This document shows, one piece after another, positions 4,586 through 12,752 of a stretch of DNA of 64,000 nucleotides; within the stretch, counting starts at the first letter, position 1, and each line of letters begins with the position of its first letter. The stretch spans positions 41,540,001 to 41,604,000 of the forward strand of contig OZ024748.1 of NCBI GenBank assembly GCA_964016885.1, given 5' to 3'. This DNA comes from Eledone cirrhosa. Taxonomy: Eukaryota. Below the pieces are notes generated by a model, which worked only from the letters and a program-made list of their open reading frames with translations, had not been told where the DNA came from and did no database searches. The position numbers and the translations under genes are program-made.

Positions 4586-4846
4586 GTAGAACACTGGAAG
4601 GTAATATCCGCAGTGGTAGAGCACTCAGTCCATGGGACGAGTTAGGTAGAAGTGGTTACACAACAGTTAGTTCACCATATCGAGAACAATTGTTTCACCT
4701 TAGCGGATCCTCAGCTCGTAATGGACATGGTTATACGGAACAGGTTGTCCTTCCTGTTCCGTATATGTCCATTACGAGCTGAGGATCCGCTAAGGTGAAA
4801 CAATTGTTCTCGATATGGTGAACTAACTGTTGTGTAACCACTTCTA
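4586..4846 (-). mobile_element. Fold-back mini-element A (Penelope-terminus-like) with a hammerhead in both arms
   Basis: Unique tail 4586-4646, then a ~200-bp near-perfect palindrome 4647-4846 ending at a (TA)n run. Confidence 0.75.
4769..4818 (+). ncRNA. Minimal type-I hammerhead ribozyme (identical inverted copy on the minus strand at ~4675-4724)
   Basis: CGAG-CTGAGGA(4779-4785)-TCCGCTAAGGT-GAAA(4797-4800)-CAATTG-TT-CTCG. Helix I CGAG/CTCG, palindromic helix III ACAATTGT, NUH triplet GUU. Confidence 0.75.
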
Positions 4847-4942
4847 TATATATATATATGTGTATAAATATATATATATATATATATATATATATATATA
4901 TATATATATATATATATATATATATATATATATATATATATA

Positions 4943-5237
4943 TTTAAAGGTTAAACAAGGTTCAATGAATAATCAAAGAATGAGTTTTACAATACATTGG
5001 AAGCACTCCACAGAAATGGTTTTCCGGAGTTATTAATATTAGTTCAAAATATTAACAAAAAAATAGACTGACATGACTGAATCTTAATCATCTACTAAGT
5101 CAGGGTATGTCATGCATCATCTTATTTTATCTGATGGGGACGTACTGTTGAAGATAGCTCAGTACCTCTGAAATATGTATAATAAAATATACTTGATCAC
5201 ATAAATGTCTATTTTTGTTAATATTTTGAACTAATAT
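4943..5237. mobile_element. Fold-back mini-element B
   Basis: Tail 4943-5035; inverted arms 5036-5068 and 5207-5237; flanked by (TA)n on both sides; hammerhead lies between the arms. Confidence 0.7.
5123..5189 (+). ncRNA. Hammerhead ribozyme, variant core (CTGATGG)
   Basis: 8-bp helix I TATTTTAT/ATAAAATA; CTGATGG 5131-5137; helix II GTACTG/CAGTAC; GAAA 5170-5173; short helix III; NUH triplet AUA. Confidence 0.65.
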
Positions 5238-5250
5238 ATATATATATATA

Positions 5251-5589
5251 GTTAAAAGAATAGAGGTGTAACACACAAGTTATTATATATTGGTAAACGG
5301 AATAGAAAATGCTGACAAATTGTTCACAGTTGAAAAATGGTTTAATTATGAATAAAAGAATATTAGTGATTGTATGGGTTAGTATTCAGTTGTGGTTTTA
5401 AGTATTTAAGTTTTTACCGGTTTAAGTTTTTACCGGTTTTTACCGGTTTTTACCGGTAAAAACTTAAAAACTTAAAACCACAACTGAATACTAACCCATA
5501 CAATCACTAATACTCTTTTATTCCTAATTAAACCATTTTTCAACTGTGAACAATTTGTCAGCATTTTCTATTCCGTTTACCAATATATA
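5251..5589. mobile_element. Fold-back mini-element C (~138-bp arms)
   Basis: Arms 5284-5421 and 5452-5589 are reverse complements with about 3 mismatches; apex has four TTTTTACCGGT-type units; (TA)n flanks. Confidence 0.75.
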
Positions 5590-10000: not shown

Positions 10001-10630
10001 TCCTTAGATTTCATTATTTCAAATAGTTCTTGGGAACATAATCTACATTCATTTCTATTATTTTGATAAGGGGTGGCTCTTTTGAGCACACTCCAGGTCA
10101 AATCATATTCTATATTCTTATTTTTATAACTATTGATTTTTTCTGCTAGAGATGTTGTATTAGCCAGTGCGGCATTTTTAAAACTATGCTTGTGGGTATT
10201 AAACCTTGTCTTAAAATTGTTAGAGGTAGCTCCTATATATGAGCAAATAGAATCTTTAGTTTTAACATTACATTTATAGACTATGTTGTTAACAAGACAA
10301 TTCCCTTTTAATGGGCAGTTTGCTTTGTTTCTACAGTTACAACCTTTCGTTAATTCTGTATTTGAGGAGATATTATGGTTAATTTGATGTACTGGTGGTA
10401 TACTTATGGTTTTCTTACATTTATATGCATTATAGGCACTTATATTTTGTTTTATGTTATTTGTTGTAGAGTATGAGAATTTAACTGTAGACCTATTTAA
10501 GATTTGATGGTATTTGTGGTTTGGCGGGAAGTTTTTCTCTAGGATATAAAAAAATTTTTTAGCAATATTATCCTTAATTTGTAAATTAAATGGAGCATTA
10601 TACCAAGTAACCCGTCTATTACGGTTTTTT
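9916..10630 (-). pseudogene. PLE C-terminal region: linker, Cys-rich knuckle and GIY-YIG endonuclease (frameshifted relative to RT)
   Basis: WYNAPF, VKFSYS, CNCR..CPLKGNC, IVYK...SYIGAT...FKTRF..H, WSVL, CRLCSQE, LLNKRQE...CNH. Confidence 0.9.
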
Positions 10631-12358
10631 ATGTTGTTTATTATTTTTATTATTTTTATAGGTTGTATCGTGATGTTTACTAGGAGGATTAATGTTAATG
10701 ATCTCACCACAACCATTTTTAGTTATATTTGTAGATTTAGGTGTTTTATCCTTTTTATTAGGAGTTTTATTATTAATATTTATTAGAGTTGTATGATGAG
10801 TAGTTTTTTGAGAGTTACTATATTTTATATTAGAAGATTTGGTATTTTGGGGTATAGTGTGGGTGGCATTTAGGTGTGTACTTTTCATTTGGTGTTTGTT
10901 GGTAATATTAGGTTGTATGCTTTTAGTATTTTTAGTAGAAGGTATATATTCTAATCTATTTTTGTGGCCACTTCTATCTAGAGCTTCGTTACAGAAGGTC
11001 GCATTTTTATCAAATACATCTTGGTTAGAAGAAAGGTTAGAAATTCTAAGTGATATATTATATGCAAGGTTTTTAAGGATAGATTTAGGGTGATTAGATT
11101 GTGAGTGTATGTAATGTAAGTTTTGGTTTGGTTTATGGTAAGGTTGGTAGATACCCGTAGCTAAATCTAAAGTTATATCTAGGAAATTTACTACTTTATT
11201 TGTTTTTTCAAAAGTAATATGAAGATTATAATAGTCTTTAAGGAAAGTTCTAATATGTTTTTTGTTTTTTTCAATTTCTGAAAGGCTAAGGTTGTTAGAA
11301 AGAAGAAGACAGTCATCACGATATAAACCACCTTTGAGGTGGGGAAAGGAGGCATTTATGTTGAAAAGGAGAAAGAGGCCCACAAGATCAGTAATTTGGG
11401 CGGAATCGCTTGAACCCATAGTAATATCAAATAGATTACTATATGTGTTTCTGGTCCAGTATTCATTCTGAAATTCAATAAGTGTTAGTCTAGCATGTGT
11501 AATAATATTAATGTCATCCAAAGTTAAGTTAGATCTATTTTTAGCAAATATCAATGCTTTGTTCAGGAGTATAGGTGATATAGAAGAATAGTAATTATCT
11601 ATATCAAATTGTAGAAATGAAGCAGAAGATTTACATCTAATATTTTTAAACCAGTTAATTACCTGGGAGGTGTTTTCCCAGAGTGGTAAAATAACGTGTT
11701 TTCTTATTTGTGGGATGACTCTATCCAAAATTTTTTTGCTAATTATTCCAATATCTGATTTGGAGGGACATATAAGTCTAATAGAAGGATTTGAGTTAAA
11801 GTTTGATTTATGATCCTTCAGGTTGAAGTGTGGTCTTTTCAATGCCAAAGGTTCAGTTCTATCTTCAATGTTTAGTTTTTTTACTATGTTGTGTGTTTTG
11901 TTGTTGATGTTGGTGAGTGACGCATTATTAGATTTTTTATAATTTTTTCTGAGTTCTTTATATATGAACTCATTATAATGTTCAATATCCATATGATACA
12001 AGTTACCAGTTTTGTCCGAGTGGACATGGATTTTTTTAGACTTTTTTAGGTCCAATAGGGTAGAATCAAGGTCCTTTTGAAAGACGGATTTATACTTTTT
12101 AAATTTGAGGTGTTTAATTAAATTAAAAAGGTCTTTCTCGAAGTCTTCAAGTAAAAAGTTGTGTGGTGGATTCTTGTAAGTATTGAAATCATACATATAT
12201 TTCCGATCTGCTTGTTTAGATTTTTTATCGAAGTGGTAGGCTCTCCATCTAACCCTTCTGATAAAATTATTAGTTTTTTGAATCATAAGGAGTAAGAAGT
12301 CATCCTTAGAAGGTATTGGTATGTTTTTTAAAGAGGTTCCCAAATATTGTTTTTCCAT
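10619..12358 (-). CDS. Penelope-like reverse transcriptase
   Basis: ATG at 12358 (MEKQYLGTSLKNIPIPS); DKTGN, LKDHK..F, RLICPSKS, FDIDNYYSSI, TMGSSDSA, LYRDD, VNFLDITLDL, YIHSQSNHP. Confidence 0.92.
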   Translation of the reverse strand: MEKQYLGTSLKNIPIPSKDDFLLLMIQKTNNFIRRVRWRAYHFDKKSKQADRKYMYDFNTYKNPPHNFLLEDFEKDLFNLIKHLKFKKYKSVFQKDLDSTLLDLKKSKKIHVHSDKTGNLYHMDIEHYNEFIYKELRKNYKKSNNASLTNINNKTHNIVKKLNIEDRTEPLALKRPHFNLKDHKSNFNSNPSIRLICPSKSDIGIISKKILDRVIPQIRKHVILPLWENTSQVINWFKNIRCKSSASFLQFDIDNYYSSISPILLNKALIFAKNRSNLTLDDINIITHARLTLIEFQNEYWTRNTYSNLFDITMGSSDSAQITDLVGLFLLFNINASFPHLKGGLYRDDCLLLSNNLSLSEIEKNKKHIRTFLKDYYNLHITFEKTNKVVNFLDITLDLATGIYQPYHKPNQNLHYIHSQSNHPKSILKNLAYNISLRISNLSSNQDVFDKNATFCNEALDRSGHKNRLEYIPSTKNTKSIQPNITNKHQMKSTHLNATHTIPQNTKSSNIKYSNSQKTTHHTTLININNKTPNKKDKTPKSTNITKNGCGEIININPPSKHHDTTYKNNKNNKQHKKP

Positions 12359-12556
12359 TGTGATATGGATGATGGACAATTGAAAGAGCTCAACTAAATG
12401 TATATGGGTTTATAAAATCATACATATATATGTATATACACAAATATAAAATTAATACACACATACAGTATAAAAATACGAATATTTCCGTGTATATATA
12501 TTTCCGTGTATATATACGAATATTTCCGTGTATATATATTTCCGTATATATATATA

Positions 12557-12752
12557 ACGAAGGAAATGTGGTAAGGAACCAGGTGGACCATAACGCACCA
12601 AAGTACTCAATACTTAGGGTAGTAGAGTGGGTAATAGGAACGAGCAGGACCCCGACGGCTGAGCTCAAGCCGTTTCGACGGCTAATTCTGGACTCCAGAA
12701 TTAGCCGTCGAAACGGCTTGAGCTCAGCCATCGGGGTCCTACTCGTTCCTAT
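12557..12752 (-). mobile_element. Fold-back mini-element E carrying the 3' half of a hammerhead
   Basis: Tail 12557-12633; 119-bp palindrome 12634-12752 centred at 12693 with 2 mismatches; each arm has GAAAC-GGCTTGAGCTCAGCC-GTC/ATC-GGGGTCC; (TA)n flanks. Confidence 0.75.

Follow-up and report, generated by a model that had tools for sequence, protein, structure and literature searches.

A hairpin beside each of the two insertion ends of Hydra-clade Penelope-like elements in Eledone cirrhosa, a candidate signal for two reverse-transcription starts

Motif and elements at the locus

A 64,000-nt stretch of the Eledone cirrhosa genome (assembly GCA_964016885.1, contig OZ024748.1, forward-strand positions 41,540,001 to 41,604,000; hereafter the window, numbered from its first letter) carries four fold-back inserts, designated A, B, D, and E, which are 5'-truncated head-to-head copies of four families of Hydra-clade Penelope-like elements (PLEs) in (TA)n. 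It also carries a larger element of a fifth family (F1) and a fold-back of another kind (element C). A first-pass annotation had noted the heptamer AGYACTC in the tails of the four inserts, always on one strand and 18–27 nt outside the fold-back, and this was confirmed by an exact count: the window holds four matches, all on the + strand, at 4620, 5002, 5679, and 12602 (the annotated start at 4620 stands, and those at 5001, 5678, and 12601 include a leading A). The heptamer lies in the unduplicated tail of all four fold-backs. The arms begin 20, 27, 18, and 25 nt past it at 4647, 5036, 5704, and 12634, and their mirror ends join (TA)n, both as annotated. A shuffle of the window gives an expectation of 31 AGYACTC matches, but dinucleotide shuffling breaks the satellites and this control is thus uninformative.

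The hammerhead cores of A and D lie on the − strand and point tailward, which identifies the − strand as the element strand and the tail as a 3' extension. On the + strand, GAGT follows each of the four heptamers after 9–18 nt, so the heptamer is one half of a hairpin. Read on the element strand, the motif is ACUC-loop-GAGU-RCU, and the hairpin bases are located 2–5 nt from the arms of A, B, D, and E. Two other readings were ruled out: the motif is not part of the hammerhead, whose core begins 72–129 nt upstream of it, and a likeness of the family A tail to a tRNA A-box is absent from the B, D, and E tails.

The inserts had been regarded as unrelated, and all four prove to be PLE families of one clade. 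Each of A, B, D, and E has longer copies that run into an open reading frame (ORF) of that family, and the proteins of F1, E, A, and D are mutually 37–47% identical. The natural ORFs (813 aa in F1 and 719 aa in E) contain YRDD and a C-terminal Y-I-G motif and are single ORFs encoding a reverse transcriptase (RT) followed by a C-terminal GIY-YIG domain; the proposed link of the motif to GIY-YIG elements thus held, and a Helitron-type terminal hairpin was ruled out by the same ORFs. The diagnostic features of the Hydra clade are RWR/RWK, DKT, CxCX5C, and CxxC with CxH around conserved E and N (PMC8557442). RWR at residue 37 and SDKT are present in F1, E, A, and D, and a family B copy has SDKT and RWG. 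The CxCX5C linker is found in F1, E, A, B, and D, and CxxC with CxH (in place of CCHH) in F1, E, and one A copy (L324). The families were placed in the Hydra clade by these diagnostic motifs. Insertion into (TA)n, a further feature of the clade, is also seen in the window families. The tandem periods of E (~3.54 kb), D (~3.94 kb), and F1 (6.7–6.9 kb) exceed the clade length of <3 kb, which is a tendency only (PMC8557442), and the excess in all three is untranslated sequence. Of 30 family A loci, 6 have a Hydra-clade ORF upstream on the element strand. Pfam gave no match for the ORF fragments of the window and RVT_1 in one of three homologues.

Hammerhead cores are canonical in A, B, and D, although that of the window B copy (from 5131) has one core base changed. 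Family E has a U3-A8 variant, of a type described previously (PMC4209133), with a long stem III about 110 nt before its hairpin (L277), and F1 has a changed core base (window 6086–6138). F1 is very young despite this change, and hammerhead self-cleavage may be dispensable. Rfam found no hammerhead at gathering score in window 4300–13300 or in three further loci (L144, L147, L216); none of the 138 weak matches in that part of the window reached the gathering score, and the three loci gave no matches.

Structure and covariation of the hairpin

The motif was placed in a wider set of sequences through 141 homologous proteins; an alignment of 34 of these led to 77 marine metagenome loci, which form 63 clusters at 80% nucleotide identity. 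Hairpins were picked in these loci by sequence only (GAGYRCY with RCTC 10–45 nt upstream), which yielded 61 distinct sense hairpins in 35 of the 77 loci and 7 antisense ones. The comparison indicates a conserved hairpin with a bulge, in which the heptamer forms the 3' strand and which reads RCUC, variable helix, UN bulge, GAGY, and RCU on the element strand. Specifically, the inner pairs form only in the register with a 2-nt bulge (60, 50, and 43 of 61 hairpins at positions 1–3), and the first inner pair forms in 0–22 of 61 at the other registers. At positions 2–4, 121 of 183 cells are paired; shuffles average 70.5, and none of 10,000 reached the observed count. All 61 hairpins have U as the first base of the bulge. 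At inner positions 1–3 read on the sense strand, G-U occurs 9 times and A-C not once.

An alignment of 54 hairpins (50 from the metagenomes after removal of near-duplicate loci, and the four window copies) gave 95.3% paired cells against 82% in shuffled alignments (0 of 500 reaching it) and 57 two-sided changes, compared with 18 after shuffling. The outer three pairs, which do not vary, had been selected for in the hairpin search and carry no weight in the covariation. A covariance model (R1) built on the hairpins finds the four window copies by construction, and it also finds the second hairpins (H2, described below) of families B, D, and E, on which it was not trained. It found nothing in two loci of the element C family or in one f6 locus. 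Among published Hydra consensus sequences inspected by eye, three of six carry the full motif (two sea cucumber and one coral), two carry a degenerate form, and one carries none.

Two hairpins at two insertion ends

Hairpin pairs with a spacing of 55–83 nt were observed in 23 metagenome flanks, which predicted a second hairpin just past the tail end in the window families. This prediction held in all five families (A, B, D, E, and F1); the hairpin inside the tail is designated H1 and the second one H2. In family E, H2 gave 323 pattern matches against none for the reversed control, and H2 was located in D, B, and F1 as well. In family A it was missed by the first pattern searches (no matches and no read-through), having a variant 5' strand and a span of 97 nt, and was found through the ORF; 25 loci contained 7 read-through copies. 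H1 and H2 have the same orientation, and the order in all five families is hammerhead, end 1, H1, tail, end 2, H2, and the ATG of the next unit. In A, B, D, and E, H2 precedes the start codon by 25–90 nt.

H1 is located just past the tail-less end and H2 just past the tail end. The offsets of their bases (H1/H2) are 4/2 nt in A, 5/3 in B, 2/3 in D, 5/3 in E, and 4/6 in F1, and each end has an alternating UA run of 2–6 nt. When the loci fetched for each family were excluded and an alignment overrun of ~3 nt into TA was allowed, 107 of 111 (TA)n-fused ends fell in two peaks just 5' of H1 or H2. Among head-to-head pairs with both ends classified, 56 of 57 combine one H1 end with one H2 end. With looser classes, 97 pairs comprise 90 with a tail at one end and none at the other, 4 without a tail at either end, 1 with two tails, and 2 intermediates. 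In the marine loci, the repeated copy ends 0–12 nt before a hairpin in 10 of 13 informative cases (9 of them at 0–4 nt), a set that omits rows reaching the contig end, and L154.

The distance from the heptamer to the end is mostly ~18–27 nt and is extended to ~81 nt for H1 of F1, ~95 nt for H2 of A, and ~118 nt for H2 of F1. In these three hairpins (81 nt and 116 nt in F1, and 97 nt in A), the long insertions fold out while the closing helix stays put, retaining the offset of 2–6 nt. The predicted pair probabilities of the closing helix are 0.9–1.0 in F1 and ~0.7 for three of four pairs in H2 of A. As the heptamer distance varies while the helix base is fixed, the distance is measured on a folded single strand and not by a DNA ruler. 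The annotated idea of a cis signal at a set distance stands for the placing of the insertion end and is disfavoured as a ruler along duplex DNA.

Enrichment in the genome

The positional enrichment of the motif was examined in 780 kb of the genome, sampled at arbitrary round coordinates as 78 segments of 10 kb. These yielded 90 asymmetric TA-flanked fold-backs, 61 of which have a microsatellite-closed tail and fall into 27 families. GAGTRCT occurs in the first 110 nt of 23 of the 61 tails (0.7 expected) and in the last 60 nt of the arm in none, so that the enrichment suggested by the first-pass annotation is present in this larger set. Five antisense matches in the tails are ascribed to the near-palindromic octamer. 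The 5' hairpin strand is found at −1 to 8 nt of the arm end in 28 of the 61 tails. Only 6 of the 27 tail families carry GAGTRCT (8 carry GAGYRCY), indicating that the motif is clade-specific and not general to TA-flanked fold-backs. The heptamer GAGTACT itself occurs 78 times in the 780 kb, which is unremarkable against permuted heptamers (median 57, maximum 393); the signal is thus one of position and pairing and not of abundance. Across the 3.0-Gb genome, the pattern ACTC-N6-20-TN-GAGTRCT has 145,149 matches against 4,839 for the reversed pattern, the matches being repeat copies and not independent events.

Other features of the locus

The coordinates of the features are listed in Table 1. 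The RT and GIY-YIG ORF of F1 runs from 12358 to 9916 on the − strand and is divided between two frames in the window copy; the 150 best matches listed are copies 99–100% identical to it. The 3' untranslated region of F1 is ~3.9 kb long and includes a TA/CA microsatellite of ~1.8 kb (window 6844–8692) that moves with the element.

Table 1 Features of the PLE families in the window.
Feature	Position	Strand	Remarks
Family A tail (3' extension on element strand)	4585–4646	−	Fused here to (TC)n
Hairpin H1 of A, ACUC-helix-U-GAGU-GCU	4619–4642	−	Base 4 nt from arm end
Family A head-to-head arms	4647–4846		Hammerhead motif at 4681–4718 (−) and 4775–4812 (+)
Family B tail	4943–5035	−	
Hairpin H1 of B	5001–5030	−	Base 5 nt from arm end
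Family B arms	5036–5237		Tail-less longer copy on +; hammerhead-like core from 5131
Element C fold-back	5251–5589		Tail of 33–35 nt; no hairpin of H1/H2 kind; negative control
Family D tail	5619–5703	−	
Hairpin H1 of D	5678–5701	−	Base 2 nt from arm end
Family D arms	5704–5936		Hammerhead core at 5765–5805 (−)
Family F1, young Hydra-clade element, near full-length	6013–12498	−	Unit ~6.7 kb; tail-less end in (TA)n at ~6013
3' half of hairpin H2 of F1	12384–12396	−	5' half lost through 5' truncation of window copy
Family E tail	12557–12633	−	
Hairpin H1 of E	12601–12628	−	Base 5 nt from arm end
Family E head-to-head arms	12634–12752		Fused to (TA)n

Insertion ends from five PLE families are located within 1.4 kb (window 4585–6013) with (TA)n between each, and this microsatellite serves as a repeated landing site. 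Most of the window is satellite, with a 38-kb array of a 12-bp satellite (20087–58059) and arrays of 27, 76, and 24 bp (14637–16559, 16803–18897, and 61233–64000). The tail ends of family A often stop a few bases before the usual position and are fused to (TC)n instead of (TA)n (window 4504–4585; L237–L256, L287–L316). One family B copy (L280, G000:C184:96000-105999) stops inside H2 and continues into TTAGGG repeats, resembling a telomere-healed end.

Element C had been viewed as a case with a degenerate motif at best. Instead, 4 of 30 loci of its family have an endonuclease ORF 1.6 kb upstream on the element strand, with a CX2-5CxxC linker (read in L345 and L355) and a CCHH-type C-terminal GIY-YIG, and by endonuclease and linker the family appears to be of the Neptune type. 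A Neptune-type endonuclease was also observed in one locus (L114) of another motif-less tail family (56 nt). The C tail (window 5251–5283) and a related tail (L121:6488-6782) have a small GTGT/ACAC hairpin of their own a few nt past the arm end, which is possibly the Neptune counterpart of H1 and H2. Two motif-less families with tails of 56 and 72 nt form repeats ~420–550 bp apart (L054:7372-7936, L036:1192-2817, L060:7255-7982). A hammerhead-like core follows their tail end and no ORF was seen, as in retrozymes. In these two families, a purine run in the tail is complementary to a run just beyond the tail end. This pairing is perhaps a different start-setting fold; the single fold computed (L060) left the runs unpaired.

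Proposed mechanism and alternatives

We propose, as the probable explanation, that the two hairpins are bound by protein in the element RNA and thereby fix two points at which reverse transcription begins. The GIY-YIG domain would cut both strands in (TA)n, and two RT active sites, probably of a dimer, would engage the RNA, one on H1 and the other on H2. Each 3'-OH would pair with the UA run just 5' of its hairpin, and the RNA would be copied 5'-ward. The strand started at H2 would contain the tail and H1, while the strand started at H1 would contain neither. Once joined in the middle, the two complementary DNAs (cDNAs) would serve as templates for each other. This would give a fold-back with a one-sided tail, and the tail would be the interval between the two start sites. 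That an RT dimer grips the two tandem hairpins on one RNA, so that both DNA strands begin at programmed positions, is a more specific proposal to which we give somewhat less than an even chance. The covariation of the inner pairs, the preference for G-U over A-C on the sense strand, and the direct orientation of the copies argue for a folded RNA that positions priming.

These same observations bear on the idea of a DNA-level signal, in which the motif is recognised by the GIY-YIG domain, perhaps as a DNA hairpin that is single-stranded or extruded within a longer-than-unit intermediate, and the TA run next to each copy is cut. The tail of Drosophila virilis Penelope is reportedly needed for endonuclease recognition (Pyatkov 2004, as described in PMC11167929), and the tail was attributed to endonuclease-mediated resolution in PMC8557442. 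The core AGYRCT is close to a palindrome, a common property of DNA-binding sites, and single-stranded sense DNA would covary likewise. However, no copy of the motif is present in the target (TA)n and ordinary insertions do not include H2, and both facts also disfavour the annotated suggestion that the nuclease cuts DNA away from a bound motif. Moreover, the distance to the heptamer in duplex DNA ranges from 18 to ~118 nt, the two copies are direct although the two ends are on opposite strands, A-C pairs are missing on the sense strand where G-U is found, and the eighth base that would complete the palindrome varies among the metagenome hairpins. Recognition at the DNA level thus appears unlikely.

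An RNA-processing signal is improbable to a similar degree. Here each hairpin would be a point of cleavage or 3'-end formation in a read-through transcript, giving two RNAs for end-primed reverse transcription. This would account equally well for the fixed offset of the helix base and for the structure on the sense strand, and for the anole Poseidon element PAc, RNA-seq read ends were reported at both start sites (PMC11167929). It requires, however, that two RNAs be paired one-to-one in 56 of 57 insertions, whereas initiation by PAc in vitro was internal and required downstream RNA (PMC11167929), and no known ribozyme family was matched in Rfam. Shared ancestry or an unrelated role, such as control of translation from the ATG that lies close to H2 in B, D, E, and A, is very improbable, as the tails cannot be aligned between families and yet the offsets of 2–6 nt from two ends are kept in five families and in marine relatives.

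Several points weigh against two RNA hairpins that set two starts, besides the near-palindromic core. RNAalifold recovered only the outer four pairs, H1 of E alone folds weakly (outer pair probabilities of 0.36–0.44), and antisense tails are as stable in folding as sense tails. Family A deviates, with 1-nt bulges, a bulged closing pair in H2, and (TC)n-fused tail ends. No hairpin was found in the examined flanks of 42 of the 77 metagenome loci, many flanks being short or missing, and three of the 13 informative marine loci (L131, L163, L169) end away from a hairpin. The 111 (TA)n-fused ends were counted after setting aside 62 alignment ends not directly fused to (TA)n, the strict rule leaves 40 of the 97 pairs with an unclassified end, and the copies share ancestry, so that end and pair counts are not independent events. 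The precedent for two starts is from Poseidon, another clade than Hydra, and both strands of PAc used both sites in vitro (PMC11167929), while the Hydra-clade ends pair one-to-one. For the Hydra clade, protein binding, RNA folding, and dimerisation are predictions.

Significance

The one-sided tail and fold-back structure of PLEs have been described for decades, and the tail has long been puzzling. Two internal RT starts were demonstrated in vitro only in 2024, in a study from which the RNA determinant was missing (PMC11167929). A short hairpin at both ends, with covariation across animals, offers that determinant in testable form: two hairpins, two starts, and one of each per insertion. The comparative sequence evidence indicates that the hairpin is a genuine, clade-wide RNA element and that the retrotransposon carrying it is of a known kind; the hairpin makes the origin of the PLE tail directly testable. 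If the more specific proposal of an RT dimer on two tandem hairpins is true, the hairpins would amount to a complete cis code for the tail and to the start-setting equivalent of the template boundary element of telomerase. A portable cassette of ~120 nt could then bring about the two-strand insertion into (TA)n of whatever RNA lies upstream of it. Since the RTs of PLEs are the closest retrotransposon relatives of telomerase, the positioning of their template bears on telomerase origins. In practice, the motif distinguishes Hydra from Neptune tails without an ORF and defines the boundaries of full-length elements, with ~145,000 pattern matches in a 3-Gb genome.

Comparison with known systems

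In twin priming by L1, both target strands prime on one RNA and an inversion results. The second L1 primer anneals at variable places and gives no duplication, whereas the PLEs analysed here have fixed starts and overlapping copies.

The clade, its targeting of (TA)n, the fold-backs, and the tail were already known (PMC8557442, PMC3846280, PMC4209133). The window families resemble the Hydra clade of endonuclease-containing (EN+) PLEs (Craig et al. 2021, PMC8557442) in RWR/RWK, DKT, CxCX5C, and CxxC with CxH replacing CCHH, as well as in a putative hammerhead in the pseudo-long terminal repeat (pLTR), (TA)n insertion, inverted 5'-truncated copies, and a one-sided tail. They differ from the published members in having tails of 60–140 nt instead of 30–40 nt and units of 3.5–6.7 kb instead of <3 kb (PMC8557442). 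What appears to be new is the hairpin and its doubling in Hydra-clade PLEs. The twin hairpin is undescribed in the text of PMC8557442: the main text never uses 'hairpin', and the text of the supplement contains none of the terms 'hairpin', 'stem-loop', and 'secondary structure'. Searches of the literature and of Rfam returned neither the hairpin nor its doubling, a result on which Repbase reports, subscription journals, and supplementary figures may bear.

The closest experimental parallel is PAc (Frangieh et al. 2024, PMC11167929), whose purified protein cuts and extends both strands in vitro. Its reverse transcription has two internal starts on the RNA, one at either limit of the tail, and depends on RNA lying 3' of them; a dimer is predicted (PMC11167929). 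Two starts bounding the tail are likewise proposed here for the Hydra clade. Unlike those of the Hydra clade, the starts of PAc lie inside the ORF at an 'AC-rich stem loop', and no repeated, covarying element is reported in the parts of that study considered here (PMC11167929).

The RTs of PLEs group with TERT in the tree of PMC12632851. In telomerase RNA and in the stem-loops of the DRT10 non-coding RNA (ncRNA), a structured RNA fixes the bases copied by a related RT (PMC12632851), as is proposed here for the hairpins. The likeness is one of functional analogy only: the telomerase RNA and DRT10 elements are located 5' of the template and set the stop (PMC12632851), whereas the Hydra-clade hairpins are located 3', would set the start, and are doubled.

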